From assembly GCA_033193195.1 (NCBI GenBank), contig GCA_033193195.1_4326.1: a stretch of DNA of 45,624 nucleotides; one strand, 5' to 3'. This DNA is from a phage. Positions 1,977 through 42,714 of this stretch are shown piece by piece. Under the pieces are notes generated by a model, which worked only from the letters and a program-made list of their open reading frames with translations, ran no database searches and was not told where the DNA came from. A program made the translations under genes and the position numbers. Positions within the stretch are counted from its first letter, which is position 1, and every line of letters begins with the position of its first letter.

Positions 1977-4900
1977 TTAGAACGTGCCTACAATAACTTT
2001 CCCTCCATTCGGTAGGTTAACCGTGATTCCATTGCCGTTAATCTGAACCGTATTGTTAGTTCCGTTAAATGCAAAGTTACCACTATCTGCGTAAAGCCTT
2101 CCATGAATTTCTGCATTACCAGACTTCTCAATCCTCCACCCAGCACTTCCTTGAACAAAGTTGTTTGATTGAATCGAGTTACCAATCTTCGCGTTAGTGA
2201 TTGAACCATCCTGAATCACTGTGCTTTGAATGAATACCTGATTACCTTCAACTACGAAAGGCAATGACCACTGACCGGAACCTGAACTAACACCGTTACT
2301 GATTGCGAACCTGTTAGCATCAAAGATGACCTGACTACGAACATTGCCATCAGAACCAGTTAGCGCCATACTCATGCCAGAACTGTACTCAACGCCATTG
2401 TATTTGAGGCCAAGTTTAATCCCGTACTGAGCACCAATTGAATCGGCAGTAACGTAAGTGTCCAGCTTCTCATTTAACGCAGCCTCATTATCACCTAGCC
2501 TTGCAGATAAAGCAGTGTCCGCAGTGGTCCTTGCTTGCGTCTCTTCCGCTAGCGCCGTATCAATCCTTGTCAATGAAGCTACAATCTCATCATCAATCTG
2601 CGCCTTAAGCTGCGTCAGAGCCTCTACGCGAGCCCTTTCTTCATCGGCGATAAGATTCACAGCCTGAACAAATTCGGCCTTCCTCTTGCCGTTTTCCTTC
2701 GTCATTCTACGCACGTCACCATCATTAGCCAGGGCGTTCTCAATTATTGATTCCGCTTGCGCCTGAATAGCTCCGTTTGACTCAATGGCATTCTGTTGGA
2801 GATACTTGAACCCATCTGAGTTTTCTATATCAACCTTAATATCACCAATGATTGACGACACATCATCGCTTGCCATACCCCTTACAAAATCAGTCCATGG
2901 TGAGACGTTACCAATCTTGTCAATCAGTCGCGCCCTGTACCAGATGACCTTTCCAGCAGGAAGTGTAGTATGCCAGTACTCGTAACTCGGGTAAGGCACC
3001 AGAGTCAGAAGGCTAGCATTCTCTGGTGTATAAGTACCATCACCATTGTCGGCTACTTGCTGCAATTCAGTGTATGACGTATCGGCTGAGTTTTCAGGAA
3101 ATCCCCACTTAACCCTAATGCCGAATATTTCATCATCTGAAGCGGTGATTACTGTAGGTGAAGAAGGGGTCCCAATCTTGCCTGTGAGGCTTACTGAAAC
3201 AATGTCAGACCATGCGGATACGTTTTCAGTATCAGAAACGGCCCTTACGCGAACCTGGTAAATTCCGGCATAGATACCTTCAATATCAACCTCTGTGCTT
3301 GCTGTGCGCGGCACGTTAATCCAGTTTCCGTTCTCCTTGCGCCACTGGACCGTGTAGGTTTTCGCGTACTGAACCTTGTCCCACGTGATTACCATTGTCT
3401 CAACTGATAAACCCTGAACAACCTTACTGTAACTGCTAACCTGAACATTCTCTGGTGCCAGCAGTGTATCCGGCTCGACGATTGAAGTCGGCCTATCAGT
3501 AATGTTTACGCCGTAATCAATTTCGTCGTATTTGTTAGGGTCGTACTCAACCGCTGTAATCGTGTAACCAAACGCATCATCTCCATCGCTGTCTGCTTTT
3601 TGAATACCGGTCACAACATATTGCTGAAGAGCAAGATTTTCCTTATCAATCGCAAATACTGTGTCAGGCTGAGGAGTAAAGCTAAACGCTGTATTAAGTT
3701 GCAGCGTCATACCATCTTCAGATACAGATGCAATGGTCCTGTACTCTGGCATTCCATCAGGCTTGTTAATAAGAATCCTGTCGCCAGCAGCAGCGTCAAT
3801 CTTAAAGGGTACGAAAACCTGCAACCCACTAACAGACTCAATACGCCCAGAAAGATTAAGCGTGTAGTTGCTAGACCATGCCTGGTCATTAACTGCAATC
3901 ACTTCACCAATCATTGGGATCATGCCTTCCAGACCAGTAGTGAAACTGATTGTCTCACTGCGCAAGTTTGTCTTTAACAGCCATCGACCGCGTCTGTTTG
4001 CCTCACTCCTGCGTGTACATCCAATAGCGGTAAGGTCAACAGGGTTGTAACCAAAACGCCTTGTTGCCTCTAACTCGAATACTGGCTCAACATCCTGTTG
4101 GTATGAGTTTTCAACGTCATCAAACTGAACGTTGGCAACCGTGTAAAGTGACTTATCGCTACCAAATGTACGGTTAAAAACACCATCAACAACGTTGTCA
4201 TTGGTGAATACGTACGATGGTTGACGCGGCTTATCGACAACAATCCCTATCTGCTCGCCGTCATAGAATGTCAGCCCACGGAAGATAGAGCAAATATCAC
4301 GGATTACCTGATATGCTTCAACTTTCTGCTGAATGACAACATCACACAGGTAGCGCGGCTCAACTCCACCCTTACCATCTGGAACCATCTGGTCACAGAA
4401 TTGCGCCGCCTCATACAGACCCCACTTATCAATAGTAATGCCAAGCTCTCGCTGGTCAAGTCCGTAACGCTGATTCGTCACCAAGTCGTAAAGAACCCAC
4501 GCCGGGTTATTGGAATACGCCATCTTAAAGGTGCCGTTCCAGGTTCCGCTGTAAGTCCTTGTCTCTGGGTTGTAGTTATTTGGAACGCGAATCAACTTCC
4601 ACTTCTTCTTGATTGAAATCGTCGGGATTCCGTTAGGGAAGAGGTCAGAACTGAACTCAACGTAAACCAGAGCTGTAAGTGGGTAGCGGAATTTAGCATC
4701 AATTACTTCCTGATAGGTCGTAATTTGCATGTCGTTAACCAGCGTCGAACTTTCTGAATCTGCCGTGATCTTACGAACCCTCACCAACGCACTCGAGAAC
4801 TCAGCAGGAAGGTTAACCCTGATACTTCTGTCGTACCCGCTAGTTGTCTTGCCATTAACTACTCCGCGCGTGTACTCAGTGTATGTAGCGCCATCAACGG

Positions 4901-5348
4901 ACAGGTCAATCGCATACTCGCAAGTGGTACCGTTAAGATCTCCGTTACTTTCCTGATTAATCAGACGAGGCCAAAACAGCTTAACCCTAATCGCTGATAG
5001 CTGGGTGTTATTAACAGCAATGATGTAAGGAGTTGAGTTTTTAATCTCCCTGTTCACTTGCACTTCCGAGTTAGCACCCTCTAGCCCGGCAATGTAATCC
5101 TGACTCTGTGTGCCAGGGCGAAACTCTGCCGTTACACCCTCGTAGTTGTATGTGCCATTCTGGTTCTGTACAGGAACGTCAGCAAGGTAAAGGTCCTTTA
5201 GGGAGAATGAGCTATCAACCTCACCATCAGAAACAGCTAGCAAAACCTTAACCTTGTTTACGGATATCAGGTTATCAGGCTGCTCTACAGGTTGGTGCTG
5301 CTTTGGCTGTCCGCCCTTACTTCCATAAATCTTAATTTCTTCCGCCAT
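1977..5348 (-). CDS. central tail fibre / host specificity protein (lambda J-like)
   Basis: 1123-1136 aa, last gene of M-L-K-I-J-like block; start 5348 chosen for GGAG 9 nt upstream (track start 5387 has no SD). Confidence 0.7.
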   Translation of the reverse strand: MAEEIKIYGSKGGQPKQHQPVEQPDNLISVNKVKVLLAVSDGEVDSSFSLKDLYLADVPVQNQNGTYNYEGVTAEFRPGTQSQDYIAGLEGANSEVQVNREIKNSTPYIIAVNNTQLSAIRVKLFWPRLINQESNGDLNGTTCEYAIDLSVDGATYTEYTRGVVNGKTTSGYDRSIRVNLPAEFSSALVRVRKITADSESSTLVNDMQITTYQEVIDAKFRYPLTALVYVEFSSDLFPNGIPTISIKKKWKLIRVPNNYNPETRTYSGTWNGTFKMAYSNNPAWVLYDLVTNQRYGLDQRELGITIDKWGLYEAAQFCDQMVPDGKGGVEPRYLCDVVIQQKVEAYQVIRDICSIFRGLTFYDGEQIGIVVDKPRQPSYVFTNDNVVDGVFNRTFGSDKSLYTVANVQFDDVENSYQQDVEPVFELEATRRFGYNPVDLTAIGCTRRSEANRRGRWLLKTNLRSETISFTTGLEGMIPMIGEVIAVNDQAWSSNYTLNLSGRIESVSGLQVFVPFKIDAAAGDRILINKPDGMPEYRTIASVSEDGMTLQLNTAFSFTPQPDTVFAIDKENLALQQYVVTGIQKADSDGDDAFGYTITAVEYDPNKYDEIDYGVNITDRPTSIVEPDTLLAPENVQVSSYSKVVQGLSVETMVITWDKVQYAKTYTVQWRKENGNWINVPRTASTEVDIEGIYAGIYQVRVRAVSDTENVSAWSDIVSVSLTGKIGTPSSPTVITASDDEIFGIRVKWGFPENSADTSYTELQQVADNGDGTYTPENASLLTLVPYPSYEYWHTTLPAGKVIWYRARLIDKIGNVSPWTDFVRGMASDDVSSIIGDIKVDIENSDGFKYLQQNAIESNGAIQAQAESIIENALANDGDVRRMTKENGKRKAEFVQAVNLIADEERARVEALTQLKAQIDDEIVASLTRIDTALAEETQARTTADTALSARLGDNEAALNEKLDTYVTADSIGAQYGIKLGLKYNGVEYSSGMSMALTGSDGNVRSQVIFDANRFAISNGVSSGSGQWSLPFVVEGNQVFIQSTVIQDGSITNAKIGNSIQSNNFVQGSAGWRIEKSGNAEIHGRLYADSGNFAFNGTNNTVQINGNGITVNLPNGGKVIVGTF

Positions 5349-5395
5349 ATCACATAGCTCCGCATTTGTTTTGACCATTTGTGCCATTCTACACT

Positions 5396-5421
5396 AAATA
5401 AAAAACCCGCACTAGGCGGGT
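5396..5421 (-). terminator. hairpin plus T-run between I-like and J-like genes (possible attenuator)
   Basis: CCCGC-ACTAG-GCGGG followed by T6 on minus strand. Confidence 0.45.
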
Positions 5422-5427
5422 CTTAAT

Positions 5428-6003
5428 TTAAGCGATATCTTCTGAGTAACTCCCAGCACTAAATACAGAGCCGCCAACACTTCGATAACCGTATGGCAAA
5501 CATATTGGGTATCCAGCAGCTACAGTGTTAACAGCCGACCCGAATGCGTATGAAGCCCTGTTTTGCGCAGACTCCTGCGTCTTTAATCCAGTTGCTTGTG
5601 GGGAAAGTAACTGAGCTACACCGCCAGCAGCTAGTGAGATACCAGCACCAAGAACAGCGGTTGCAATACCACCAGTAAGGAAGAAGCTAGCACCAATGAG
5701 CGCCGCACCTATTACTGTCTGGAATAACCCTCCGCTTTTTCTTCCTTGAGGTATTGGCATAATACGAATCTCACCAACTACCTTAAAATCCTTGATACGA
5801 TGTTCATTAAGGTTCTTCCCGTCAGCAAATATTGCGAACCTAGTCCTTTGTCCAGCATGGCTTTGCATGAACTCTTTAAATGCTGGAATGTTTACCGATA
5901 ATGCTCGAAGTGCTTCCGGTACAGACTCCACGCACAACTCATGGACTTTCCCGTACCTTCTGCCAAGTGACAAGCCCAGCTTAACCTTAATCAGTCTCTG
6001 CAT
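5428..6003 (-). CDS. tail assembly protein (lambda I-like)
   Basis: position after K-like gene; hydrophobic Gly/Ala-rich C-terminal half. Confidence 0.5.
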   Translation of the reverse strand: MQRLIKVKLGLSLGRRYGKVHELCVESVPEALRALSVNIPAFKEFMQSHAGQRTRFAIFADGKNLNEHRIKDFKVVGEIRIMPIPQGRKSGGLFQTVIGAALIGASFFLTGGIATAVLGAGISLAAGGVAQLLSPQATGLKTQESAQNRASYAFGSAVNTVAAGYPICLPYGYRSVGGSVFSAGSYSEDIA

Positions 6004-6745
6004 TGTAATTTGCTCCTTCTGGTAAATCTTTGTGGCGAACGATTCGAACCGTGCGCTCGCGCCAGTAATCGCTATAAGTATCTACTTTACTCATCTTTCC
6101 GTAAAGGTGATGCAGGAACTTGTTATCTCCAATGTAGATTCCTGCGTGGTTTGTCGTCTCACTTTGAATCTGCATCATAATCATGGAGCCAACTGGAATA
6201 TCATCAGTTTCTACTAGCTCAAATCCTTCCTTAATCCAATTCTCGTCATAGATATTTTCGCCATACTCCTTGTTCCACCATGGATAATTAACGCGGTAAT
6301 CAGCCAGTTTAACGCCGTGTTTTGCGTGGAATGACATTATCAATCCCCAGCAATCGAAGCTACCCAAACCCCACGGTCTTCCTGCTAGCGGCATATCAAC
6401 TGGTTCAAGGATTCGCAGATCTCCTTCCGGGTAACTAACGATGACATATGGAATCTCGCACTCATTGCAACTGCATATGTCTGCCGGGCTAGGCCTTGTA
6501 GTTGCACCATCTCCAGTGTGTGAGTGAGCTACGTAAACAATTGACTCGCTGTAGCCAAGATTAAAGACAATATTCATGTACTCACTGGCGTCAAGAATGA
6601 ACTCATTTTCAGGGTCTTTCGATGCGTTGGTGATTCTATGGTATTTTTGTGCCATGCCTTTTTGGGTGACTACGCCGCAGCACTCGTTTGGGTAATCCTC
6701 TTTTGCGTGGCGCATGATTTCTAGTTTAACTTTTGGTGTAAGCAT
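5987..6745 (-). CDS. tail tip assembly protein K-like (JAB/MPN + NlpC/P60)
   Basis: E..CCG, AHSHTGDGATTRPSPAD (HxH..S..D JAMM-like), DCWGLI Cys and downstream His; start 6745 with AAGGAG. Confidence 0.7.
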   Translation of the reverse strand: MLTPKVKLEIMRHAKEDYPNECCGVVTQKGMAQKYHRITNASKDPENEFILDASEYMNIVFNLGYSESIVYVAHSHTGDGATTRPSPADICSCNECEIPYVIVSYPEGDLRILEPVDMPLAGRPWGLGSFDCWGLIMSFHAKHGVKLADYRVNYPWWNKEYGENIYDENWIKEGFELVETDDIPVGSMIMMQIQSETTNHAGIYIGDNKFLHHLYGKMSKVDTYSDYWRERTVRIVRHKDLPEGANYNAETD

Positions 6746-6755
6746 TTTAGACTCC

Positions 6756-7511
6756 TTAGTTCTGGTTATTCTTGGCTTGCAAGCTAGCAGAGGCACAACC
6801 TCCAAATGATAGCTGGTTGTTTTCACCAAACCTTAACTTACATGCATCAACAGTTCCGGCGCAGAAATCCAGGCCAGGGTCATCAACCGGATTATTGTCT
6901 TTATCAAAGTATCGATTCCCGGCATAATCACAACCGTTACCACTACGATACCAGCCACGGGAAGCGAAGTAGCATACTGACTGGACTAACCTCGCTGGAA
7001 TATAAATGCCATCCATATCAATTGGGCTAGATAACTCAAAAGAGGCAGTTTTGTAGTCAACCTGCTTTGGACGCTCAATAAAGTAAACCATCTTACGATA
7101 ATCACCATCTGCAATGCTGCCGTCCTCATTGATATTATCCCTGATAGTAACCCAAATTGTCACCTTAGCCTGAACCATGCCATTATACTGACGTATTAGC
7201 GCGGAAACAGCCTGGTCTACGTTTGATAAAATTAGCGTGAGCTTGTTTGCTTTGCCGTCAGAAGTAAGATTAATGCCGCTAATACCGAAAGGCCTGGCTC
7301 CATACTCTTCTCCACGGAAAGTGATTGTCTTGGATGGTAGTGGCTGGCCGGACGCTTGGGCTTGCATGATTTCTTCAGGCGTGTATGAGATGTTCTCCCC
7401 ATGAAACCTGTAAACCCTTGCCCCGAATTTACTTCCGTCAACCTCAATAAGCGTAACTACTTCACCAGGAAAAAGTGATTGAAGCTGGTTTTCAAACTTT
7501 AAACTTGCCAT
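6756..7511 (-). CDS. minor tail protein L-like
   Basis: position; C-terminal Cys cluster (CDYAG..CAGTVDAC..GGC) as in gpL-type proteins. Confidence 0.65.
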   Translation of the reverse strand: MASLKFENQLQSLFPGEVVTLIEVDGSKFGARVYRFHGENISYTPEEIMQAQASGQPLPSKTITFRGEEYGARPFGISGINLTSDGKANKLTLILSNVDQAVSALIRQYNGMVQAKVTIWVTIRDNINEDGSIADGDYRKMVYFIERPKQVDYKTASFELSSPIDMDGIYIPARLVQSVCYFASRGWYRSGNGCDYAGNRYFDKDNNPVDDPGLDFCAGTVDACKLRFGENNQLSFGGCASASLQAKNNQN

Positions 7512-7520
7512 ATTCTCTCC

Positions 7521-7546
7521 AATAAAAAAGGCCCTCTATGGGCCTT
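7521..7546 (-). terminator. hairpin plus T-run between M-like and L-like genes
   Basis: AGGCCC-TCTAT-GGGCCT followed by T6 on minus strand. Confidence 0.45.
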
Positions 7547-7549
7547 AGT

Positions 7550-7900
7550 TTAACCCATTGAAGTAAAAACTTCAGTAAATTGCATGCTAACAGTCTGGAC
7601 TTCTTTTGTGCTAGGAGTGACGCTGATACTATCCTGCTGAATAACAAACAGCTTTAATTCACCCTGTGGCGTAGTCCATGCGAAAGGTTTTACAATGTGA
7701 TCAAAGCAGAAGTTCATTACTGCCTCCCACTCACGACCAACGTAGCTAACCGTATACGTCCTTTTGTTTGTCCTGTATCCTCCAGTACCCCTTTGTTCAA
7801 AGCCGTTGCCAAAGGATACAATTCTAACGTTGTTCTTGTTACTAAATAATGATCCACCGTTGAGAACGTTCAAGCACCAGTTAAATGTTTGCAATGCCAT
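7550..7900 (-). CDS. minor tail protein M-like
   Basis: 116 aa immediately after tape measure gene. Confidence 0.55.
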   Translation of the reverse strand: MALQTFNWCLNVLNGGSLFSNKNNVRIVSFGNGFEQRGTGGYRTNKRTYTVSYVGREWEAVMNFCFDHIVKPFAWTTPQGELKLFVIQQDSISVTPSTKEVQTVSMQFTEVFTSMG

Positions 7901-7931
7901 TTAAAATCCTTAGGGGCCGAAGCCCCGTTAA

Positions 7932-10913
7932 TTAGTTGTAACCCCTCAGATAAGCAAAGGCTCTTCCGCCCTGCTGGAATGACTTGCTGATTTCCTCAGC
8001 AACGATAACCTTAACTCCAGATTCTATCGCCTTAGCATCATTTCCGCCACCAATTCCAGAGTTTACGTTAACCGTCACGCCGCCAACACTGACATTCGTG
8101 CCACCAACAACTCCACCATTAGCATAGCCAGAGGGCCCACCAACAGCGCCGCCATTTGCATAACCTCGCATTAGCTTGTACAGGTTCTTAACGCCAATCC
8201 TGCTTGTAGCTTCTTTTGTGAATACAAACTCACCGCGGTGCACAGTTCCAGCAGGTTGATACTTCCCGCCGTCTCCAGTGTAGCCGCCGCCAGCAAAGCC
8301 AATTGCTGACTTTATTGACTCAAAGGCACTACCTGCTCCAGTGTCACCACCAAAGCTCTTAATTGTAGATTCAATAGCCTTTACCAAAAGTAGCTGAGTT
8401 GCAATTTTCGCAATCATTTTCAGTATGTTTGCCGTGAACTCCCTGAAATTAGTCTCTCCAGTGGTTACAAGGTTTGTAATCTGGTCGGTAATTCCATCAA
8501 AAGCTGCGACAGTCAAATCCTTAGCAATTTGGTTGAAGTCAGTGTACTTCTCAGTTAAGTCAGCAAGCGTTGAAGTTACACCAGCTTGCCAGTCTGACCT
8601 TAGGTTATCTTCCTGCCTGTAGTATTCTTTTCTTGCTTCCAGCAGATTCTGGAAATCAACATCATCTACAGAGCCACCCTTGTTTACCTGATTGGACTCT
8701 AGCGCCTTAAGTTCTCCTGCCCTTTGCCGCTCCCTTTCGGATAGACCCGCAGCAAGTGAAACATTCTTCGCCTCATTGGTAATCTGTATTGTCTTCTTAA
8801 GGTTGTCATCAAGTAACTTGTTTGACCTCTCCTGAAGCACAATCTGGTCACCAAGTTCAGCCTTCTGTTTAGCCTGTTCAAGAATGATATTCTTCTGCGC
8901 AAGTAGCTTAGCCTGTAATTTTGTAAGCGTACCATCCGCTTTCCTTTGCTCAAGTATTGCAAACTTAGCTTCCTCCTGGAATAGCTGCTTGCGTTCGTTA
9001 CTTATTACATCGTTTATCGTCCTGTGCTCTTGTAAAACCTTTAGCTGAGCCTGAAGTGCAAGAACGCCAGATTCATAAGATAAGGTTAAATCCCTTTCTT
9101 CTTTTACTGCCTTGTTCCTCTCACTCCTCGCTTTCTTTATCCCATCAAGCTCATCAGCTAGCGCCTTCCTTCTTGCTGCAAATTCCTTATCTGTTGATGG
9201 TTTGTTGCCAGTTAGGTTGATATCGCTGTTTTCCTTAACATATCCCATCTCTCCCTTTCTGATCCTAGCATCTCGCTCAGCGATGCTTCTTGCTAACTCC
9301 TCGTTTTGCTTCTTGGCTGCATCGACAACCTTTTGCTGCTCAGCAATTATGCCGTTACCTACATCACCAAGCCCCGGTATTGACTGAAGCGTCTTGGTTG
9401 CAGCGATAGCAAATTCACCAAGAAGAATGTCGCCTGAGTTTATAAACGACCTTATCTGCTCAATCGTACCAGCAACAACGTCAGTTATTAAGTTAAGAGC
9501 ACCAAGTGTGCGCTTGCCGATTCTATCCCAAATGTCGCTTACAAACTTTCTGAAGCTATTCCATGCACTTTCAAGGGGGTTAAGGCTTAGCGCAACATCT
9601 TCCAGCCTATTCTCCATAACGTTAGCGAATAGCTCAGTAGCTGCCGTTACAGCTTCTGTCTCTCCTGCTGTCTTCCTCAAGTTCTCTATGTGTTTTAACT
9701 GTCCGGACTGAAGGAAGTTAAATTGCTTATCAAGCTCAGCAAGGCCTTTAACCGGGTCTTTTGTGATCTTGTCAAAGTACCCAAGTATAGTTTTTGAATC
9801 CGTTGATGTAACAGTTGCCCACTGAGCAGTTGCTTTGGTTATCTTATCTATCTGCGTAAGCGTTAGATTACCGTTTGCTACAAGACTATTCGCTATCTCT
9901 TGGATGAGTCCGCGCGTGGCTAGCGTGGAACTCTCAATGCTATCAACAACCTGGTTTATTTGCCCTGTTGATGTGATTGTTGAGTTTCCAACCAGCGTTA
10001 TTGTTGCTGCTAGCTCTCGTGCGTTCCTATCAGCCTGATAAGCAGCAATACCCAAGGCCCCAAGAGCCAGACCCAGAGTCCCAACAACCGCCGTTAATGG
10101 GTTAATGGCTGCCAGTGCAAACCTTGCTGTATTGCCGATACCACCAAAACTATCCTTAATCTGACCGCCCTGCTGGACTGCTACAAGCCAGATTGGCATG
10201 CCGCTAGCAAGAGATGTAACGATATCTGTAATCTGCGCTGGAAGCTGTCGAATTGCTTGCTTGTATTGACCGGCACTAAGCCCAGACTTAACAAAAGCGG
10301 AGCTTTGCTTCTGCAATTGTACCGCAGATGCCTCGGCAGCCTTTCCAATCCTGTCGATAATCGGTGCAGCCTGGTCACTAACTCCTAGCTGAGCAGCCTT
10401 AAGCTGAAGAAGTTCAGTCCTTGTCAGGCTTGCTGCATTCGCCTCGTTCTCAAGAGATTGAATGAACTTTTGCGCTGCTGTTGTTGCTTTCTCTTTATCT
10501 ATTGATGCCTGTAGTGCAGCCCTGCCTTCTTCGCTAAGAGCGGCTTTAGACCTGTTTAGCTTATTGATTTGAGTTTCAATAACAGAGCCAAGCCTGAAGA
10601 ATTCATCATCAGGAACTATCCCGGATTCAAATGCTTTGTCCAAATCTGTTGCTGCTTTCTGCAACTTCAGGAATTTAGCAGCGGTTGGGTCTATGGCTTG
10701 CTGAAGTGATGCGAAAGATTTGCGCTGCTCCTCAAGCTGCCTTGCAGTGTCCCTTGCTTGAGTCTTGGCTACAAGTTCGGCGTTGACGAAGCTATTAATG
10801 CCTGTTGCAGCTTGCTCGTTTGCTTGCCTGAATTTCTGTAAGGATTGCGTACCCTTATCGACCTGAGCTACGTCGACGGCTAGCGTGATACCAGCAATTT
10901 CGTTAGTTGCCAT
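7932..10913 (-). CDS. tail tape measure protein
   Basis: 993 aa, long coiled-coil-type Ala/Gln/Lys-rich regions, Gly-rich C-terminus, follows G/G-T chaperone pair. Confidence 0.85.
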   Translation of the reverse strand: MATNEIAGITLAVDVAQVDKGTQSLQKFRQANEQAATGINSFVNAELVAKTQARDTARQLEEQRKSFASLQQAIDPTAAKFLKLQKAATDLDKAFESGIVPDDEFFRLGSVIETQINKLNRSKAALSEEGRAALQASIDKEKATTAAQKFIQSLENEANAASLTRTELLQLKAAQLGVSDQAAPIIDRIGKAAEASAVQLQKQSSAFVKSGLSAGQYKQAIRQLPAQITDIVTSLASGMPIWLVAVQQGGQIKDSFGGIGNTARFALAAINPLTAVVGTLGLALGALGIAAYQADRNARELAATITLVGNSTITSTGQINQVVDSIESSTLATRGLIQEIANSLVANGNLTLTQIDKITKATAQWATVTSTDSKTILGYFDKITKDPVKGLAELDKQFNFLQSGQLKHIENLRKTAGETEAVTAATELFANVMENRLEDVALSLNPLESAWNSFRKFVSDIWDRIGKRTLGALNLITDVVAGTIEQIRSFINSGDILLGEFAIAATKTLQSIPGLGDVGNGIIAEQQKVVDAAKKQNEELARSIAERDARIRKGEMGYVKENSDINLTGNKPSTDKEFAARRKALADELDGIKKARSERNKAVKEERDLTLSYESGVLALQAQLKVLQEHRTINDVISNERKQLFQEEAKFAILEQRKADGTLTKLQAKLLAQKNIILEQAKQKAELGDQIVLQERSNKLLDDNLKKTIQITNEAKNVSLAAGLSERERQRAGELKALESNQVNKGGSVDDVDFQNLLEARKEYYRQEDNLRSDWQAGVTSTLADLTEKYTDFNQIAKDLTVAAFDGITDQITNLVTTGETNFREFTANILKMIAKIATQLLLVKAIESTIKSFGGDTGAGSAFESIKSAIGFAGGGYTGDGGKYQPAGTVHRGEFVFTKEATSRIGVKNLYKLMRGYANGGAVGGPSGYANGGVVGGTNVSVGGVTVNVNSGIGGGNDAKAIESGVKVIVAEEISKSFQQGGRAFAYLRGYN

Positions 10914-10926
10914 GTTGTCTCCATAA

Positions 10927-10952
10927 TAAAAAAGCCACCCCGAAGGATGGCT
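10927..10952 (-). terminator. imperfect hairpin plus T-run upstream of tape measure gene
   Basis: AGCCACC-CCGAA-GGATGGCT then T6 on minus strand; overlaps stop of 10951..11202. Confidence 0.4.
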
Positions 10953-11202
10953 ATTTCTTGGCGTTCATCATATCTAAGGCTTTAGCCTCAAGTATTCTGA
11001 TGTCGTTAAGTACCATTTCGTCATCATCTATTTTATAGACTTTGAATAAGAATGGAAGGCAATTATAATCAAGGCCTGTGGCACCGCAAGCCCCTACTCG
11101 CCATTGAGTTGACATGGCACAGTACACATCCCAGCTTTGCATCATTGTTTCATCGAAGTATAACTCTTCAGGCTCCTCACCTTCATAATCGGAACGTTTC
11201 AT
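10951..11202 (-). CDS. tail assembly chaperone T-like segment (expressed as G-T fusion by -1 frameshift)
   Basis: ORF in -1 frame relative to 11265..11579; that frame is open from slippery site to this ORF. Confidence 0.6.
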   Translation of the reverse strand: MKRSDYEGEEPEELYFDETMMQSWDVYCAMSTQWRVGACGATGLDYNCLPFLFKVYKIDDDEMVLNDIRILEAKALDMMNAKK

Positions 11203-11264
11203 TCCGATAGCTTCGAGTTCAGCATCCGTTGGCGGTGACTGGTATTGTAAGTATACTGCGCGTT

Positions 11265-11579
11265 TTAGTTTTTTACTCGCTGACCTGCTAGCGCTTTCAT
11301 GTAGCTATCCATCAGTGATGGAACGGCACCAGGGAAAAGGTTGGCAAACTCATCTACGTTCTCATCGGTAAATGGTTCTTCTAAATCCCAGTCAGAGCAG
11401 ATTTCGTTAATCAATTCTTTAGTGCTGAAGTTTTCACGATTAAGAATCTCCTGAAGTTCAGATGATTTCTTGTGCTTAACTGTTAGTACCACCTCTGCAT
11501 CTTCACCATTCGCTAACTGAAACTTAACCGGAAGTTTAAAGTCAGGCAGCGCCTTAAGTGAAAGTTTAAATTTTGCCAT
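11265..11579 (-). CDS. tail assembly chaperone G-like
   Basis: 104 aa acidic protein between major tail and tape measure; ends at slippery site. Confidence 0.65.
   Translation of the reverse strand: MAKFKLSLKALPDFKLPVKFQLANGEDAEVVLTVKHKKSSELQEILNRENFSTKELINEICSDWDLEEPFTDENVDEFANLFPGAVPSLMDSYMKALAGQRVKN
11268..11274 (-). other. -1 programmed frameshift slippery heptamer A_AAA_AAC
   Basis: minus-strand GTA AAA AAC TAA; -1 frame reads KKLKRAVYLQYQSPPTDAELEAIG then MKRSDYEGEE.. Confidence 0.6.
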
Positions 11580-11614
11580 CTCGTTATCTCCTTTGTTTGT
11601 GTTGAATGATTATA

Positions 11615-11863
11615 TTACTTTGATTCGTTTTTTACAATGTTGTGAGCAACTTCGGTGCACACCTCGCGACCATAATGCAGAATCTGATTTGTCTTATCGC
11701 CAGCTACTTTTTCACAATGAGAATATGCACTATTAAATTCATGTTCATACTTTATTGCATCAGAGTTTGCGGTTTCGCCACCAGTTGGGTTAACAATCTG
11801 AATTGCCAGGTAGAAAGCACCAAGAGCAGCAGCAAGTTTGATGATGTTTTTAACGTTGTTCAT
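11615..11863 (-). CDS. small secreted or membrane protein (moron-like insert)
   Basis: N-terminal hydrophobic signal-like segment; own family promoter upstream. Confidence 0.5.
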   Translation of the reverse strand: MNNVKNIIKLAAALGAFYLAIQIVNPTGGETANSDAIKYEHEFNSAYSHCEKVAGDKTNQILHYGREVCTEVAHNIVKNESK

Positions 11864-11896
11864 TTCACTAATATCTCATTTCGTTTCGATGAATGA

Positions 11897-11941
11897 ACTA
11901 TACAGCAATCCGCGATTTGGTCTTTAACAAAAAGTGCTATC
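11897..11941 (-). promoter_or_regulatory. family promoter for 11615..11863
   Basis: minus-strand GATAGCACTTTTTGTTAAAGAC, TATAGT -10, CATCGAAACGAAA leader. Confidence 0.55.
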
Positions 11942-11943
11942 AA

Positions 11944-11967
11944 TAAAAAACCCTCCGAAGAGGGTTT
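11944..11967 (-). terminator. rho-independent terminator after major tail gene
   Basis: AACCCTC-TTCGG-AGGGTT then T6 on minus strand. Confidence 0.7.
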
Positions 11968-11971
11968 ATAT

Positions 11972-12631
11972 TTATGCCAGTTCAGAAGCTACAGAACTCA
12001 ACCTACCACGGATAGATACCGCGATGGATACCGTTTCGATTTCGTTAACACCAATGCTTGGGGTGTCGTTGAAAGCGATAGTGCCAGACTGGAGACGCAT
12101 CTCTCTAGCTCGAGGTACGAACAGACGAATAGCAACAGTAGTACCAGTTTCGTCATAGTTACGCAGAATCGGATATATCGGGTTGGTGTATTCGTGCGCA
12201 AACGTGTAGGTGTTGGTTACCGCAGACTTATAAGTTGGAATCTGCTGCTCACGTTCATCAGATAAACACTGGAAGTTAACGAACTGCTGTTCGCCGCCAT
12301 CAGTGGATACGTCCTGAACACAAGGAACTTCAAACCAAGTAAGAATCTTAACAACTTCACCAGTTAAGCCAGCTGGGAACTTAGTGGTGTTGGAGGTATC
12401 AATACCTTCAACAGTTACGGTTGAACCAGATACCTCGGTAACGCGAACTTGCTTATCAGCCAGCAGGGTCGAAGCTGAGCTGGTAAATAGCAGGTAATCA
12501 CCGCGTGCAATATCAGCAACGCTGGACAAAGTTAAAACAGGAGTAACAGCATTGGAAATTGCAGTTACGTCAATAGTAGCTCCCCTGGAGCCTTCTACGA
12601 AGACCTGAGTGCCATTACTAAGATGGGCCAT
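11972..12631 (-). CDS. major tail protein
   Basis: 219 aa immediately upstream of G/G-T chaperones, followed by strong terminator. Confidence 0.65.
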   Translation of the reverse strand: MAHLSNGTQVFVEGSRGATIDVTAISNAVTPVLTLSSVADIARGDYLLFTSSASTLLADKQVRVTEVSGSTVTVEGIDTSNTTKFPAGLTGEVVKILTWFEVPCVQDVSTDGGEQQFVNFQCLSDEREQQIPTYKSAVTNTYTFAHEYTNPIYPILRNYDETGTTVAIRLFVPRAREMRLQSGTIAFNDTPSIGVNEIETVSIAVSIRGRLSSVASELA

Positions 12632-12642
12632 ATATTTTCCTT

Positions 12643-13041
12643 TTAGTCAAGACGAACATAGAAACGAACTGGAATAAACCAGCCAGATTTTGACTTCACT
12701 ACTGGGTGAACCACGCCGCCCTCATAAATGTAGCCTGTGTCAAGCATTGTACCATCAGTCATGGATTCTGCCAATTGATTAGCAACCCTCCTTGCACTGT
12801 CGACACCATCACCTGGTGAGAAAAAGACGGATACCTGAACCATGCCAACATAGTACTTACACTTGCGACTCAGGCTGTAGGTTACGGTATCTGCCTCTGT
12901 GTAATCGTATTTCAGCCACATACCACCATTATTGGGAGGAGAGAAGGCTACGTTTTCATAGGAAATTGGATACCTGACTGGAAACGTTTTAACCAAATCA
13001 GTCACAAACCTCCTTGCTGCTAAGGATAGCTCATACTGCAT
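12643..13041 (-). CDS. tail terminator protein (U-like), positional call
   Basis: gene order only. Confidence 0.4.
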   Translation of the reverse strand: MQYELSLAARRFVTDLVKTFPVRYPISYENVAFSPPNNGGMWLKYDYTEADTVTYSLSRKCKYYVGMVQVSVFFSPGDGVDSARRVANQLAESMTDGTMLDTGYIYEGGVVHPVVKSKSGWFIPVRFYVRLD

Positions 13042-19779: not shown

Positions 19780-19825
19780 ACTATAATCCATCCTTGGCGG
19801 AGTGTCTTTAGCAAAACGTGCTATT
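19780..19825 (-). promoter_or_regulatory. family promoter for 19397..19750
   Basis: minus-strand AATAGCACGTTTTGCTAAAGAC, TATAGT -10 22 nt downstream. Confidence 0.55.
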
Positions 19826-22081: not shown

Positions 22082-22105
22082 AAAAAAAGCCCTCAAGAAG
22101 AGGGC
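22082..22105 (-). terminator. rho-independent terminator
   Basis: GCCCTC-TTCTT-GAGGGC then T7 on minus strand. Confidence 0.6.
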
Positions 22106-22158: not shown

Positions 22159-22347
22159 TTACTTTCGCTCACGAACGTAAGCTACTAGGAATTTGTGGTA
22201 ATCCGGGTCGGCACCAGACATTACCTTAACTTTCGCTACTGCTTCCTCTGAGGACTTAGCAGTAACCGACGCGATAAATTCTTGAGTGCAACTTTTGCAA
22301 CTACGACCCATTAATCGGATTGAAAGCTTAACATCCCAGAGCTGCAT
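22159..22347 (-). CDS. hypothetical protein
   Basis: 62 aa ORF. Confidence 0.4.
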   Translation of the reverse strand: MQLWDVKLSIRLMGRSCKSCTQEFIASVTAKSSEEAVAKVKVMSGADPDYHKFLVAYVRERK

Positions 22348-22540
22348 TTTTTATCTTACCGCTCTGATTGCTATAGTTTTGAGTTTCTCTTTCAAGCTCG
22401 AGATAACCTTTAATATCCGCGCTAACTGAAACCCCGCCAATCACACCCTTTAAGCATTTATGTTCACGGTCAAGTGTTGCGTTGAATTTTTGGGAAGTGC
22501 CGCTTTCAATATCTTTTACGATGATTGTTACTTTTTTCAT
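22328..22540 (-). CDS. hypothetical protein
   Basis: 70 aa ORF. Confidence 0.4.
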   Translation of the reverse strand: MKKVTIIVKDIESGTSQKFNATLDREHKCLKGVIGGVSVSADIKGYLELERETQNYSNQSGKIKNAALGC

Positions 22541-22571: not shown

Positions 22572-22647
22572 TGGTGTTCCGCACTGGACTCGAACCAGTA
22601 ACTAAGACTTAGGAGGTCTTTGCGTTATCCTGTTACGCCAGCAGAAC
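22572..22647 (-). tRNA. tRNA-Arg (anticodon CCU, decodes AGG)
   Basis: 76 nt cloverleaf by hand: acceptor GTTCTGC/GCGGAAC (one G-U), D stem GCGT/ACGC with GG loop, anticodon stem AAGAC/GTCTT, loop CTCCTAA, T stem ACTGG/CCAGT, T loop TTCGAGT, encoded CCA. Confidence 0.8.
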
Positions 22648-22835
22648 AAATCCTTGAGTAGCGATTGCGCTATTGAAGGATTGCTGGTTACGCTTCCAGC
22701 GTCGAGTTTCTCGACCGATTTCGCCATATACGCTGCTTAGTGAGCTATGGACTTTGTGTTGCGCTCAGTGCGCCGTTGCCACTTGGTGGCCTCGTCTGTC
22801 TACAGTTGTTAATGTACCAGTCAGGGTTAGATGTG

Positions 22836-23036
22836 TCAACTTACTCTTTCGAATTTCCCATAATTCTGGTCATACGGGTAGTCAATGCTCACCAATTCGC
22901 CATTATCGCTGTAGCAGAATACGTGGCCAGTCTTCGATACCTTTTCGACCTGGTAATCGCATCCATATATGAAGTCATCCGATGCCGCCTTTGTGCACTT
23001 GATAGCATCGCCTTTCTTAATAATTTTATTTATCAA
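22836..23036 (-). CDS. hypothetical protein
   Basis: 66 aa ORF. Confidence 0.4.
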   Translation of the reverse strand: MINKIIKKGDAIKCTKAASDDFIYGCDYQVEKVSKTGHVFCYSDNGELVSIDYPYDQNYGKFERVS

Positions 23037-23975: not shown

Positions 23976-24398
23976 TCAGATTTTGTTAATTTGCTCAAAC
24001 TTCTCAAACCAGAAAACAACTGGATCCTCCACTATGGAGATGAGGCCGAACCGCTCTGCCGTGCGAAAATTCATGCTGCTCTTACGCCCGCGAGCGACTT
24101 GAAGAGACACCTGTTCCCTGAACATTTCAAGGGAATAGCAAGCTTTCATGAGGTTGCATGGAGCACATGCAGGGTAAAGGTTTTCCATTCGATCAGCTTG
24201 TGGTCGATTAAACTCACCTGTCGCCTTCAGCTTGAAAGTTCCTTTCTCCGCTGCCTTCATGCATACCTCAGATTTACGTAGCACCGGTTCAACATGGTCA
24301 GCATGCCAGCCTTTCTCAGGTAGTTCACACCCACAATAAGCGCAGCGACCACCGAACTTGCCCTTCAACTCTTCCCTTTGAGATTTGCTTAATTTCAT
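23976..24398 (-). CDS. HNH endonuclease
   Basis: CAYCGC..WHADHVEPV..N..CAPCN zinc/HNH motif pattern. Confidence 0.75.
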   Translation of the reverse strand: MKLSKSQREELKGKFGGRCAYCGCELPEKGWHADHVEPVLRKSEVCMKAAEKGTFKLKATGEFNRPQADRMENLYPACAPCNLMKACYSLEMFREQVSLQVARGRKSSMNFRTAERFGLISIVEDPVVFWFEKFEQINKI

Positions 24399-25886: not shown

Positions 25887-25932
25887 AATAGCACTTTTTG
25901 CTAAAGACATTTAGGTATTGCGGAGTTATAGT
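25887..25932 (+). promoter_or_regulatory. family promoter for rightward early unit
   Basis: AATAGCACTTTTTGCTAAAGAC, TATAGT 25927..25932. Confidence 0.55.
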
Positions 25933-25959
25933 TCGCTCCTCAACAACGAGGAGGGATAT

Positions 25960-29632: not shown

Positions 29633-29660
29633 AGCCCCATTACGGGGCTTTTTTGTTTTT
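29633..29660. terminator. bidirectional terminator between convergent units
   Basis: AGCCCC-ATTA-CGGGGCT followed by T6GT5. Confidence 0.65.
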
Positions 29661-30026
29661 CCTGAATATCATTAAGAGCAGAATGATGATGACGCAAAAC
29701 ATGATTCCACTCCCAATCCACGGGATTGCAGACGAATCATTGTTGGTGATTTCAATCTTCTCAGCCGTGATTGTTGATGCCTTGATTGAGTTATCAGAAG
29801 TCTTTTTACCGCTTGAACTATCAAGAGTGTCAACCTTAGAGTTCTTCACTTCAGCCTTTGCGCTGGAACTTGAATCAACCTTATTAGTTAGCCCTACTCC
29901 AACCTTGTTATTCTCCGCACCTGCTTGAGCGCTAATCTCTGGCTTACTACCAATCAACCCGGTCAGCGCATGAGTTGCCGAGCAACCAGAAAGTATAATT
30001 ACCTCAGCAATTAACGCAGCCTTCAT
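29640..30026 (-). CDS. candidate unimolecular spanin (lipoprotein signal + C-terminal TMD)
   Basis: N-term lipobox ILSGC, C-term hydrophobic IPWIGSGIMFCVIIILLLMIF, adjacent to endolysin. Confidence 0.55.
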   Translation of the reverse strand: MKAALIAEVIILSGCSATHALTGLIGSKPEISAQAGAENNKVGVGLTNKVDSSSSAKAEVKNSKVDTLDSSSGKKTSDNSIKASTITAEKIEITNNDSSAIPWIGSGIMFCVIIILLLMIFRKNKKAP

Positions 30027-30508
30027 TTACCCACCCCACTTAAGCATAATTTAATCTCCTCGTTGCGCCTGTTAACTAGACCTTTAACAACTTTTAGCTT
30101 GCCATTTACTCGAGCTTTATTCCAGGAGGCGAGAGCATTACAACCCTCTTCAATCTTGCCCTGATTAATCAGCCTTACTGCCGTTGACTTCCTCATTGCA
30201 GCGCCACCAACGTTGTAGCTAAAGCTGATTAACGCCGCCCTTGTCTGTGGAGAGATTGGGTAAGTTACTGCATCCTGCACATACTTTCCATGAATCTGGA
30301 TGTGTTTCTCCAGTAAGTTCCTGCACTCCCTTGCACTGTACTTTTTACCCCACACCACATCAGGACCAGTGATACCTGAACAAACCGTAGGAATGCCTGA
30401 AATGTCCATGTAAGGCTTGTATTCCACACCTTCTACTAGCTCAATAATCGGCGCTGCGATGTATATTGCTGCTGCCGTCGCTGCACTAATTACCAGCTTC
30501 TGCTTCAT
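30023..30508 (-). CDS. endolysin, lysozyme-like with N-terminal SAR-type segment
   Basis: weakly hydrophobic Ala/Gly-rich N-term; E-x8-D-x5-T catalytic spacing. Confidence 0.75.
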   Translation of the reverse strand: MKQKLVISAATAAAIYIAAPIIELVEGVEYKPYMDISGIPTVCSGITGPDVVWGKKYSARECRNLLEKHIQIHGKYVQDAVTYPISPQTRAALISFSYNVGGAAMRKSTAVRLINQGKIEEGCNALASWNKARVNGKLKVVKGLVNRRNEEIKLCLSGVGK

Positions 30509-30723
30509 TACTTACTCCTAATATTGATAGCTGTTTTTAAATCTCCTGACTCTAGCGCTTTCCTGATTGCCTGACTGTCCTTAAACTTCCAATATGCTCC
30601 CCACAGCCCGAAAACAACAAGAGCCACAAGGCTGATTATTGCTATAGTCATTTGACCAGTTGCGGCACCAGTTACAGCGGCTCCGCCGGTTGATGCCGTG
30701 GCGGCGTTAATTACTTCCCTCAT
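30508..30723 (-). CDS. holin candidate
   Basis: 71 aa from ATG 30723 with GGTGA SD; one strong TMD; TAATG overlap with endolysin. Confidence 0.55.
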   Translation of the reverse strand: MREVINAATASTGGAAVTGAATGQMTIAIISLVALVVFGLWGAYWKFKDSQAIRKALESGDLKTAINIRSK

Positions 30724-30796
30724 GTGATCACCTTTAAATCCTAATTTGTCAATACATAGTGCAAATATCATACATTAGGCGGTGGCAAATTATAAG

Positions 30797-31055: not shown

Positions 31056-31100
31056 ATTATGCCGGATTACTCCGGCGATTGTTTAGCAATTCGTGCTATT
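31056..31100 (-). promoter_or_regulatory. family promoter overlapping 3' end of dNMP kinase gene
   Basis: minus-strand AATAGCACGAATTGCTAAACAA, CATAAT, leader CATCGAAAACAAC. Confidence 0.5.
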
Positions 31101-40116: not shown

Positions 40117-40137
40117 TGCCTGAAAGATGGTAGAATG

Positions 40138-40160
40138 AATTTTAGCAATTCGTGCTATTT
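40138..40160. promoter_or_regulatory. orphan copy of family element in opposite orientation to the downstream gene
   Basis: TTTAGCAATTCGTGCTATTTT with no consensus -10 in either direction. Confidence 0.4.
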
Positions 40161-40179
40161 TACAAATGGAGACTTTACA

Positions 40180-42714
40180 ATGGCAATTTATGACTTAGGA
40201 ACAGCATCACTAGCCTCAAATGGCGAGGTTACTGGCGTAGGTACTACATGGAAAGCACCTCTTACACTGATTCGTGTAGGTGCTACTATCATTTTCAAAA
40301 CCAGCCCTCTGAAAATTTACACCATCTCTGAAATCATCAGCGATACTCAGGTTAATGTTTATAATCCAAGTTCTGAAACTGTTCCCGCTGGTACTGGTTA
40401 CGCAATTCTTGCTCATGATGGAATTACTGTTCAGGGGTTGGCGCAGGATGTTGCGGAAACATTGCGTTACTACCAGTCAAAAGAGACTTCTATTGAAAGT
40501 CTACTGCAATTTATTGGTCAAGATACTTTTGATTGGCCTCGTTTTGAACAACTGGCAACTCAGTCAACTACCGGAGCTGCCGAGGCGCTTGCTAGTCAGA
40601 TCTCTGCCGCTGAGAGTGCCTCTACAGCGGTAGGTGCTAGCAATAACGCACAAAATTCATATAACAGGACGGTTGAAGCAATAAATGCGGCTGGAAATAC
40701 AGCGGCTGTTGCTTACTTTGCTAATCACGGAATAGGTAGCACGACAACGCCATTACTTACCTCTTTAGATTGGCAAACAATGCAATTTTATTCCGGAGGT
40801 CGTTATCAGTGCACACTTGGGAATATGTTAAACACCCCAAAAGAAATTAGTTCAATGTTTCCGGTTTCAACAACTCCTATTTGTATTGATGTTATTGCAA
40901 CTAGGGGTGTTAATTCGGCTAATGTATTAAGGTTATCTCCGTCTACTGGGTCAAACTCAAATTTTAGGATTGCAGATGTCACAATTTCTGGTGCGACTGG
41001 ATCTAGGGTTTTTTATGTAAGGGAAGTACTAAGCTTGCCTGGCGGTGATGCTGCAACTGGTGGATCAAGCGCGTCAAGGGTTAGGGGGTTGCTTGATGTT
41101 TACTCAAAATCCGAGACGTTTCAAAAATCATTGAATCTTTCAGACATTGCAGATAAGTCCGTGGCAAGAACCAACCTTGATGTTTACTCAAAGGGTGAGG
41201 TGTCATCAATTTTAAATACAGATTCAAAAAGCACATCAAGCTATAGAGGCTCAATATCTTCAGCAATAGAAGCCGCTGGCGATGGCGGGTCGGTAGTTAT
41301 AAGCCCGGGAACTTATGAGAGTAATAACTACTCCTTTGCTGGCAGTAACATATCAGGCTCTGGATATAATACCGTAATAAGTGTTAAACCTTTTGAAACC
41401 GGACTCACCTCAACGCTATCTGTTCCGCACTGGAGGCAAAAGCATTTATCGGATTTGCAGTTTACAGGTACTGCAATACAAGGTAATAACGGCTTTCAAT
41501 TCCCGGATGACCCTTATGCTGGAAGGGTTGTATTGGATAGGCTTTACTTCAATGACCTGGATGTTGGTATAAGGAAAAATGCTGGCAACATTGGAAATAC
41601 CTACAGAAACGTAAGTATTAGAAATGCGAATTACGGGTATCGAGCCAAAGCTCATGACAAAATGCATATAGGAGCGGACACTTTATACGGATACCACTCA
41701 GATACAATCTATCAATATTCAGTAATGCTAGATGCGACAAGCACAAGTAGCGCAACGAACCCTGTTGCTGGAGGAATTGGTGGGTGGTGGATTAGGGATT
41801 CAATAATGGAGGCCTCTGCTGGCGGCGGTATAAGGTTAAAGAATAAACCTGGAGATTGCCCAACATCACCTTGCGGATTGTCTAACGTATGGTTTGAAGC
41901 GATAGCAACTGGGGGAGCAATTAACGTAGGTGAGGGAGCTGAACTCCCAAGGGTTTTGAAGCTCATCGATACGTCCGTTTTCTTTGCTGAGCATTCTTAT
42001 ATTAATAACATTGAGTTATCAAATTCAAACCTTGTTACTTACGGTTGCAGGTTTGATAACGCTGATGGGCATCAAAGTTTCTCTCTTGATTCGAACAGTA
42101 TTATTTTTGCTAAGGATGCATACCTGAATGGATCTTCAACATCAAGCGTTATAGTTGAGTCACTGGTATCACAGACAGCCAAGATAACGGGTACATCTGA
42201 CTTATCTGTTAGAGGATATGTTACTAAAGGTCGAGTTTTTAATCCCGATTCCGGAACTGTTTTAGTCAGGAGGCCTTTTGGTACTGGTGGGAACAACTTT
42301 GGTGGAACAGGGTCGTCAATTGAAGGTTCTGATACAAGGGGTATACACTCGCAATCATCTGGATACTACGAATTTGCTGGTGCGGCTCAGTACGAATTGA
42401 TAAATGGTGGCTTTAATATAACTTCCGGAAAATGGTATGCTTGGGGTATTTCTGCAAACAGGATTCAAGGCGGTGCTGATGGTATTATAAACATTTTTGG
42501 TAGCGCATCATTAGGCCGTGTGTTTACTGAGGGTGGTAAGTGGGTTCATACATTTGGCGTTGGTCAGGCTTCGGTTTCTGGCGTTGCAAACCTTAACATT
42601 AACCTCAATGGATTAACTGGTATGGTATTAAGCCTTGCTGATTATTTTGTTGTAGAATTTGATAATCAAAGGGACGCCTTGATATTTGCAAACTCAAGAG
42701 TTTCTCTTGCATAA
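40180..42714 (+). CDS. tail fibre / tailspike-like protein (lateral fibre candidate)
   Basis: 845 aa, Gly/Ser/Thr/Asn-rich repeats; start 40180 with GGAGA SD (track start 40135 lies inside the motif). Confidence 0.55.
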   Translation: MAIYDLGTASLASNGEVTGVGTTWKAPLTLIRVGATIIFKTSPLKIYTISEIISDTQVNVYNPSSETVPAGTGYAILAHDGITVQGLAQDVAETLRYYQSKETSIESLLQFIGQDTFDWPRFEQLATQSTTGAAEALASQISAAESASTAVGASNNAQNSYNRTVEAINAAGNTAAVAYFANHGIGSTTTPLLTSLDWQTMQFYSGGRYQCTLGNMLNTPKEISSMFPVSTTPICIDVIATRGVNSANVLRLSPSTGSNSNFRIADVTISGATGSRVFYVREVLSLPGGDAATGGSSASRVRGLLDVYSKSETFQKSLNLSDIADKSVARTNLDVYSKGEVSSILNTDSKSTSSYRGSISSAIEAAGDGGSVVISPGTYESNNYSFAGSNISGSGYNTVISVKPFETGLTSTLSVPHWRQKHLSDLQFTGTAIQGNNGFQFPDDPYAGRVVLDRLYFNDLDVGIRKNAGNIGNTYRNVSIRNANYGYRAKAHDKMHIGADTLYGYHSDTIYQYSVMLDATSTSSATNPVAGGIGGWWIRDSIMEASAGGGIRLKNKPGDCPTSPCGLSNVWFEAIATGGAINVGEGAELPRVLKLIDTSVFFAEHSYINNIELSNSNLVTYGCRFDNADGHQSFSLDSNSIIFAKDAYLNGSSTSSVIVESLVSQTAKITGTSDLSVRGYVTKGRVFNPDSGTVLVRRPFGTGGNNFGGTGSSIEGSDTRGIHSQSSGYYEFAGAAQYELINGGFNITSGKWYAWGISANRIQGGADGIINIFGSASLGRVFTEGGKWVHTFGVGQASVSGVANLNINLNGLTGMVLSLADYFVVEFDNQRDALIFANSRVSLA

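Follow-up and report, generated by a model that had tools for sequence, protein, structure and literature searches.

Among coliphages, one arginine tRNA gene is a recognised hallmark of both the Rogue1-like and the Rtp-like groups. The ortholog in Rogue1 was described as an arginyl-tRNA for the "rare codon AGG", and so was that of JK06 (Kropinski et al. 2012, PMC3496638). One arginyl-tRNA was also found in each of AHP24, AHS24, AHP42 and AKS96 (Niu et al. 2014, PMC4070988), "1 tRNA" was given as a feature of the genus in the paper on UDF157lw (PMC10838988), the UCU tRNA of SU57 was suggested to aid the translation of AGA (PMC7718038), and in the TR1 paper it was proposed that the tRNA "could compensate" for the host (PMC10450929). 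The tRNA itself is already known, having been published for relatives since 2012, and is not novel. In the papers found on the tRNA of these phages there were no codon counts, no comparative analysis and no experiments on expression, aminoacylation or knockout. What is added here is quantitative support for the published AGG/AGA suggestion, down to the conserved residues of orthologs.

The gene studied here lies on a stretch of 45,624 nucleotides, called the window below, and its description as phage-encoded holds good, the window being DNA of a T1-like siphophage of Escherichia coli (Drexlerviridae). The nearest records are the phages ES, IMM-001, AN_ECEAS, TR2 and TR3, with about 85-93% identity in mosaic blocks; two of them, AN_ECEAS and IMM-001, are listed as Braunvirinae. 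The minus strand carries, read from 22034 to 1977, the terS, terL, portal, protease, capsid, tail, tape measure and J genes in an order which agrees with the T1 and Rtp annotation, while the replication, lysis and tail-fibre genes lie elsewhere in the window. The tail module (tail terminator, major tail, tape measure, minor tail proteins and J), placed by synteny with T1 and Rtp, occupies 1977..13041 (-); the lysis cassette of holin, endolysin and spanin, recognised by endolysin PHROG 7 and by orthology with the lysis genes of T1 and Rtp, occupies 29640..30771 (-); and the tail fibre gene, assigned by PHROG tail fibre families, is found at 40135..42714 (+). The tRNA gene sits 0.5 kb upstream of terS. 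It shares with the Rogue1-type tRNA the anticodon, the site upstream of terS and the published AGG reading, and the tRNAs of Rogue1 and JK06 (Rogunavirus) and of AHP24, AHS24, AHP42 and AKS96 are its orthologs, 92-97% identical over 76 nt. The differences from Rogue1 are in the other genes of the window, which are nearer to Braunvirinae, and in the leader upstream of the tRNA. The Rtp-like Braunvirinae (Rtp, IME253, CEB_EC3a, DTL, SU57, Msk, ETEP102 and FP) have a tRNA-Arg(UCU) at the same genomic site, but they differ in the anticodon, UCU and not CCU, and in having more AGA and about half the AGG.

Several other features of the window deserve a record. An HNH endonuclease ORF at 23976-24398 (-), which belongs to the block of small genes upstream of the tRNA, and, at the left end, an ORF at 214-714 (+) that resembles DNA methyltransferases are typical T1-like accessory genes. 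An AT-rich segment at about 25300-26000, where coding passes from one strand to the other and the GC skew reverses its sign, may serve in regulation or as an origin, with promoters that diverge, and the ORF at 25512-25754, with its low-complexity runs of Tyr and Ile, is probably no gene. A PNKP phosphatase domain (PF25109; PHROG polynucleotide kinase) is encoded at 31639-32112 (-) by an ortholog of T1 'pnk', which is overlapped by a dNMP-kinase-like ORF at 31083-31685 (-), the pair spanning 31083-32112. Pnkp of the T4 type acts in tRNA repair, but no RNA ligase was seen.

The tRNA-Arg(CCU) gene occupies 22572..22647 on the minus strand and is 76 nt long with the CCA encoded, and the original prediction of a cloverleaf with anticodon CCT was right in coordinates, strand and length. 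ARAGORN, run over the whole window, accepts it as tRNA-Arg(CCT) and finds no other tRNA. Rfam agrees, with a match to RF00005 at 22575..22647 (-) which scores 58.9 bits (E = 2.5e-10; the gathering score is 29), is full length (model positions 1-71 of 71) and is the only Rfam match in the window. The gene reads GTTCTGC TG GCGT AACAGGATA ACGC A AAGAC CTCCTAA GTCTT AGTT ACTGG TTCGAGT CCAGT GCGGAAC A CCA, with stems of 7, 4, 5 and 5 bp and a D-loop of AACAGGAUA, in which an A directly follows G18G19. The anticodon (C34 C35 U36) lies at 22611..22613 and is read from 22613 to 22611 on the minus strand, within a loop CUCCUAA of 7 nt that has U33 and A37, as both ARAGORN and direct reading show. By direct reading the gene also has the T-loop TTCGA, G18G19 and a discriminator A followed by CCA in the DNA. 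The minimum free energy structure reproduces the cloverleaf exactly (-21.8 kcal/mol), but with a z-score of only -1.6 relative to shuffled sequences the folding energy alone is not diagnostic for a tRNA.

Stronger evidence comes from covariation in 20 phage homologs with a mean column identity of 85%. In their alignment 99.0% of the cells of the stems are paired and double-sided changes occur in 12 of the 21 pairs, a level which none of 500 shuffles reaches, while pairing with slid partners gives just 26-49%. The structure of the tRNA is thus under selection. Across the homologs T8, G18, G19, C32, T33, A37 and A38 are invariant, as is the CCA of the 3' end (...GCGGAAC-A-CCA) in 20 of 20; A14 and the G of the T-loop TTCGA, both present in the window tRNA, are kept in at least 90%. 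The tRNA has the conserved nucleotides for tertiary interactions, namely U8, A14, G18G19, the T-loop TTCRA, U33 and a purine at 37. The arginyl-tRNA synthetase (ArgRS) of E. coli recognises A20 of the D-loop, C35, a U or G at 36 and either purine at 73, and the window tRNA has A20, C35, U36 and A73. The tRNA gene is real and is under purifying selection.

A consensus scan found a sigma-70-type promoter-like site at 22811..22839 (-), with TTGACA, 17 nt and a TG-extended TACATT (10 of 12 matches), about 165 nt upstream of the 5' end of the tRNA, and the leader between the two takes up 22648..22810 (-). An alignment of 9 phages with the CCT form shows both boxes, TTGAC at -35 and TAnnnT at -10, fixed in position, whereas the leader from the promoter-like site to the tRNA has diverged; the conservation of the boxes despite the divergence of the leader argues that there is probably a dedicated promoter of the host type for the tRNA. 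Downstream, a 70-aa ORF of PHROG 16862 (22328..22540, minus strand) starts 32 nt after the tRNA and is probably co-transcribed with it; small ORFs similar to it follow the tRNA in Rogue1, Rtp, SU57 and phiEB49. A 62-aa ORF of PHROG 2919 (22159..22347, minus strand) is the last gene before a terminator-like GC hairpin with a T run at 22089..22105 (-), which lies between the tRNA unit and terS; in T1 a rho-independent terminator is annotated at the corresponding position ahead of terS. A Pfam search of the small ORFs beside the tRNA gave no match, and their PHROG families are all of unknown function. A 41-aa ORF at 22602-22727, which overlaps the tRNA, is probably spurious; in IMM-001 its counterpart across the 5' half of the tRNA is annotated as a CDS for a 'hypothetical protein'.

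As a query the 76-nt sequence matches 121 phage records, 103 of them at a coverage of at least 80%. Nearly all are T1-like phages of Escherichia or Shigella, and many already annotate a tRNA-Arg. Since IMG/VR gave only 9 exact pattern matches, the diversity of the tRNA was taken from the GenBank phage set. The same site, 0.3-0.9 kb upstream of terS, is used in Rogue1, Rtp, SU57, phiEB49, Opt-79, BUCT-XGG-1, ETEP102 and FP. In the two closest GenBank genomes, AN_ECEAS and IMM-001, a tRNA 100% identical to that of the window is present (positions 1201-1276 of each locus) and unannotated, and the finding of a tRNA absent from their annotation is a by-product of this work. T1 and 24 loci of T1-proper phages are without the tRNA. 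A covariance model built from the 20 homologs detected no degraded remnant in the T1 genome or in the 24 tRNA-less T1-like loci, so there is no evidence for a recent loss of the tRNA in those loci. In IMG/VR, 19 nt of the T-arm and acceptor string recur exactly in L042 (7011-7029), but neither ARAGORN nor the covariance model recognised a tRNA there; this match lies within unrelated coding DNA of a metagenomic viral contig and was taken as coincidence.

Across relatives, the site upstream of terS is also a hotspot for other tRNAs. Sd1 has an extra tRNA-Trp(CCA) there (L012, 8633-8706), phiEB49 an extra tRNA-Val(AAC) (L055, 1578-1654), and a metagenomic relative, L036, a cluster Arg-Ser-Ser-Asn-Trp-Met (8322-8969), while Opt-79 shows an odd tRNA-like call of 93 nt with a two-base 'anticodon' (L050, 1591-1683).

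The arginine tRNA at this site occurs in two anticodon forms. The CCT form is found in the window, Rogue1, Sf12, phiKP26, Sd1, phiEB49, Opt-79, BUCT-XGG-1, AHS24 and two IMG/VR contigs, and the TCT form in Rtp, IME253, CEB_EC3a, DTL, SU57, Msk, ETEP102, FP, a phage of the Korf collection and one IMG/VR contig. The T-arm and the 3' acceptor strand of the two forms are alike at 28 of 31 positions, and compensatory changes separate them in the acceptor, D and anticodon stems (pairs 2:71, 12:23, 13:22 and 28:42). The window tRNA is identical to the Rtp-type TCT form at 60-64 of 77-78 positions (78-82%), and the latter matches E. coli argU at 63 of 77 positions overall and at 37 of 39 across the D and anticodon arms. 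When the window tRNA is aligned directly with the host genes, identity is 48/76 (63%) with argW and 47/77 (61%) with argU, and blastn with the 76 nt matched none of 5,426 complete E. coli genomes; a recent capture of host argW is ruled out by these two results. Most economically, the phage lineage would have started from an argU-like tRNA, in which U34 later became C. In E. coli K-12, argW (L001, 2310-2384) and argU (L056, 424-500) adjoin the cryptic prophages CPS-53 and DLP12, and these junctions are known integration sites.

A simple assignment of the anticodon by subfamily, CCT to Rogunavirinae and TCT to Braunvirinae, was considered and is wrong, for the nearest Braunvirinae relatives of the window carry CCT. 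The terL of the window (19821-21440) is 89% identical to the terL of the TCT-bearing IME253 (L007, 9998-11563) and of CEB_EC3a; despite this IME253-like terL, the tRNA is of the Rogue1-type CCT form (96-97% identical). Such a mosaic suggests an exchange of the tRNA cassette between Drexlerviridae lineages, or else an ancestral polymorphism.

For codon usage, genes were called by a greedy longest-ORF heuristic, and the counts in the window were made from ORFs of at least 80 aa. AGG is the commonest arginine codon of the window, with 184 of 600 arginine codons (30.7%) or 14.8 per 1000 codons, while AGA makes up 17% and CGG 1.7% of the arginine codons. In two 50-kb samples of E. coli K-12 counted by the same heuristic, AGG occurs at 1.2 and 2.9 per 1000, that is 2.1% and 4.6% of arginine codons. 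The codon counts thus bear out the proposal that AGG is a codon rare in the host. Host tRNA-Arg(CCU), the product of argW, which is annotated in E. coli K-12, is a low-abundance, single-gene species. Within the phage the excess is concentrated in late genes, in line with the late gene translation of the original prediction: AGG accounts for 137 of 339 arginine codons (40%) there and for 22 of 177 (12%) in replication and recombination genes (odds ratio 4.8, p = 1.6e-11). Among the late modules the share is 46% in the tail, 10/12 in lysis and 29% in head and packaging. The tail module together with the tail fibre gene, in which AGG makes up 87 of 188 arginine codons, is the main consumer, and the AGG-rich genes include the tape measure (28/45), J (22/51), tail fibre (21/34), endolysin (6/8) and holin (3/3) genes. 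At the other end are the genes for the DNA helicase (0/26), a repair exonuclease (0/21), a transcriptional regulator (1/18) and exonuclease VIII (1/10). The most abundant virion proteins are AGG-poor as well (major capsid 1/11, major tail 2/11, portal 4/27), and since the most highly expressed late genes avoid AGG, the tRNA may let the codon be tolerated without making it optimal.

An origin of the excess in ORFs called on the wrong strand was rejected: AGG in the other frames is not depleted, and the excess appears in genes whose PHROG or T1 orthology is secure and with the annotated CDS of T1 and Rtp. Five tandem AGG-AGG pairs were seen, all in late genes (12643-13041, 13471-13854, 17376-18104 and 40135-42714), a number not clearly above the roughly estimated 2.5 expected by chance. 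Tandem AGG is a classic context for stalling and frameshifting in E. coli if tRNA-Arg(CCU) is limiting.

The relation between tRNA and codon was then followed across relatives, using loci of about 20 kb around terL relatives from IMG/VR grouped by tRNA state. Loci with the CCT tRNA have 10.0-14.8 AGG per 1000 codons, those with the TCT tRNA 5.8-9.0 AGG and 8.2-11.9 AGA per 1000, and 23 loci without the tRNA 2.8-8.7 AGG per 1000, with a median of 4.5 (CCT versus no tRNA, p = 1e-4 in a rank test which ignores shared ancestry). Both AGG and AGA are little used in the relatives that lack a tRNA. The more distant L036, whose terL is 56% identical, independently combines a CCT tRNA, within its six-tRNA cluster, with 12.1 AGG per 1000. 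With annotated CDS, the AGG share in T1, which has no tRNA, is 10.4% in late against 7.0% in replication genes, a difference that is not significant, while in Rtp, with its UCU tRNA, AGA and AGG together reach 45% in late against 22% in replication genes. Replication genes are thus alike in T1, Rtp and the window, and it is the late genes that differ with the tRNA state.

The same difference is found at individual residues. At 242 arginine positions conserved between orthologs of the window and T1, AGG is used 69 times in the window and 14 times in T1; the discordant positions number 64 against 9 (p = 2e-11), and the 64 sites are mostly CGN in T1. Compared with Rtp over 351 conserved arginine positions, the window has 96 AGG against 48 and 43 AGA against 62. 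With IME253, whose proteins are 78-92% identical, the counts over 172 positions are 46 against 22 for AGG and 14 against 24 for AGA, and 15 AGG codons of the window are AGA in IME253. Even in terL alone, at 89% protein identity, the ratio of AGG to AGA is 8/1 in the window and 2/6 in IME253. The AGG difference among relatives is synonymous, and base composition is not the explanation because the G+C content is about 0.44-0.46 in all these phages. Among relatives the usage of AGG and AGA therefore tracks both the presence of the tRNA and its anticodon, by statistics which ignore shared ancestry, and this agrees with the idea of supplementation put forward at the outset.

Our preferred reading, to which we give a probability of about 0.8, is that the gene makes a functional phage tRNA-Arg(CCU) which decodes AGG and raises the AGG-reading capacity for late genes. 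The host RNA polymerase would probably transcribe it from its own sigma-70-type promoter, located where the small-gene block meets the packaging and structural genes. The leader would then be removed by 5' processing, presumably by RNase P, the precursor would be trimmed to the encoded CCA end, and the host ArgRS would charge the product. The extra tRNA would serve the late mRNAs, in which AGG is about ten times as dense as in host genes, and both the timing of this supply and a benefit to phage fitness are presumed. The near absence of AGG from the replication genes fits with early genes being read by the host pool alone. Along with the anticodon, the usage of AGA versus AGG by the phage has shifted. 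At about 5 AGG per 1000 codons T1-proper phages grow on E. coli without the tRNA, so that the tRNA is not needed at that level; it may permit a drift to AGG, or an AGG load may select for the tRNA.

Three other readings were weighed. The tRNA could be a passenger without present function, the remnant of an integration site or of a gene once acquired from a host or from another phage, in favour of which one may cite the viability of the T1-proper relatives without it and its position at a hotspot where other tRNAs come and go. We regard this as scarcely credible: compensatory double changes are found in 12 of 21 pairs with 99% of cells still paired, the T-loop, the GG of the D-loop, the anticodon loop and the CCA are invariant, the promoter boxes have been kept while the leader diverged, and codon usage co-varies with the anticodon; moreover, T1-like phages are virulent and no integrase is present among the annotated genes of the window. 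It is also very improbable, if somewhat less so, that the tRNA serves mainly in counter-defence, replacing or outlasting a host tRNA-Arg that is cleaved or depleted during infection by colicin D or a similar anticodon nuclease, or by other immune effectors directed at tRNAs, with codon usage being secondary. Such a role is a general hypothesis for phage tRNAs, with colicin D among the tRNases of E. coli (PMC10264068); phage tRNAs neutralise some retron and other defence effectors (PMC11555353); the activated retron Eco2 cuts several host tRNAs including tRNA-Arg (PMC12916289); and the gene with the PNKP phosphatase domain hints weakly that damage to tRNAs is of importance to this family. However, the sign proposed as diagnostic of counter-defence, a difference in the anticodon loop (van den Berg et al. 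2023), is absent here, for CUCCUAA is the loop of argW. Nor would this role predict the ten-fold excess of AGG, its concentration in late genes or the shift between AGA and AGG linked with the anticodon, and we found no known defence specific to the minor CCU isoacceptor.

The remaining reading is compatible with supplementation and would add a translational timer to it, in which the AGG-loaded late and lysis genes wait until the phage tRNA has accumulated. An analogue is bldA, the tRNA-Leu(UUA) of Streptomyces. It would be in keeping with a timer that AGG is nearly absent from replication genes and dominant in the lysis, tape measure and tail fibre genes, that the contrast between late and early genes grows with the tRNA state from T1 through Rtp to the window, that the tRNA has its own putative promoter at the start of the late region, and that all the tandem AGG pairs are in late genes. 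A simple relaxation, with early genes bound to the host pool and late genes not, gives the same pattern, however, the capsid and major tail genes are late yet AGG-poor, and the number of tandem pairs is not clearly above chance; we thus consider a timer unlikely. Doubtful, too, is a bolder proposal in which the tRNA and AGG would together form a temporal gate on translation, the replication genes being kept clear of AGG for the host tRNA pool while the yield of the AGG-saturated tail and lysis genes, and with it the moment of lysis, would hang on the build-up of the phage tRNA; separately, the single shift of U34 to C within one phage tRNA lineage may have been followed by a genome-wide recoding of AGA to AGG. 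Such recoding is visible even between phages with proteins about 80-90% identical, which would make the family a natural experiment in the co-evolution of tRNAs and codons.

The Drexlerviridae are a compact system in which codon compensation can be set against the anti-defence view of phage tRNAs, because there is a single tRNA per phage and close relatives differ in tRNA state. The results are also relevant to phage engineering, and heterologous expression of the tail or lysis proteins would need supplementation with argW. The window tRNA and E. coli argW have the same anticodon, an identical anticodon loop and the same arginine identity nucleotides A20, C35, U36 and A73; unlike in these features, it is just 63% and 61% identical to argW and argU over the whole molecule. 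Rosetta and pRARE expression strains supply arginine tRNAs for rare codons. The same logic, to provide a tRNA for a codon which the host seldom uses and the phage or the expressed gene uses often, applies to these strains, to the window and to the codon-compensating tRNAs of phages generally (Bailly-Bechet et al. 2007, as cited in PMC10264068). With its single tRNA and a ten-fold excess of the matching codon in late genes, the window is an unusually clear example of this logic, which is less clear in the large tRNA sets of T4-like and T5-like phages.
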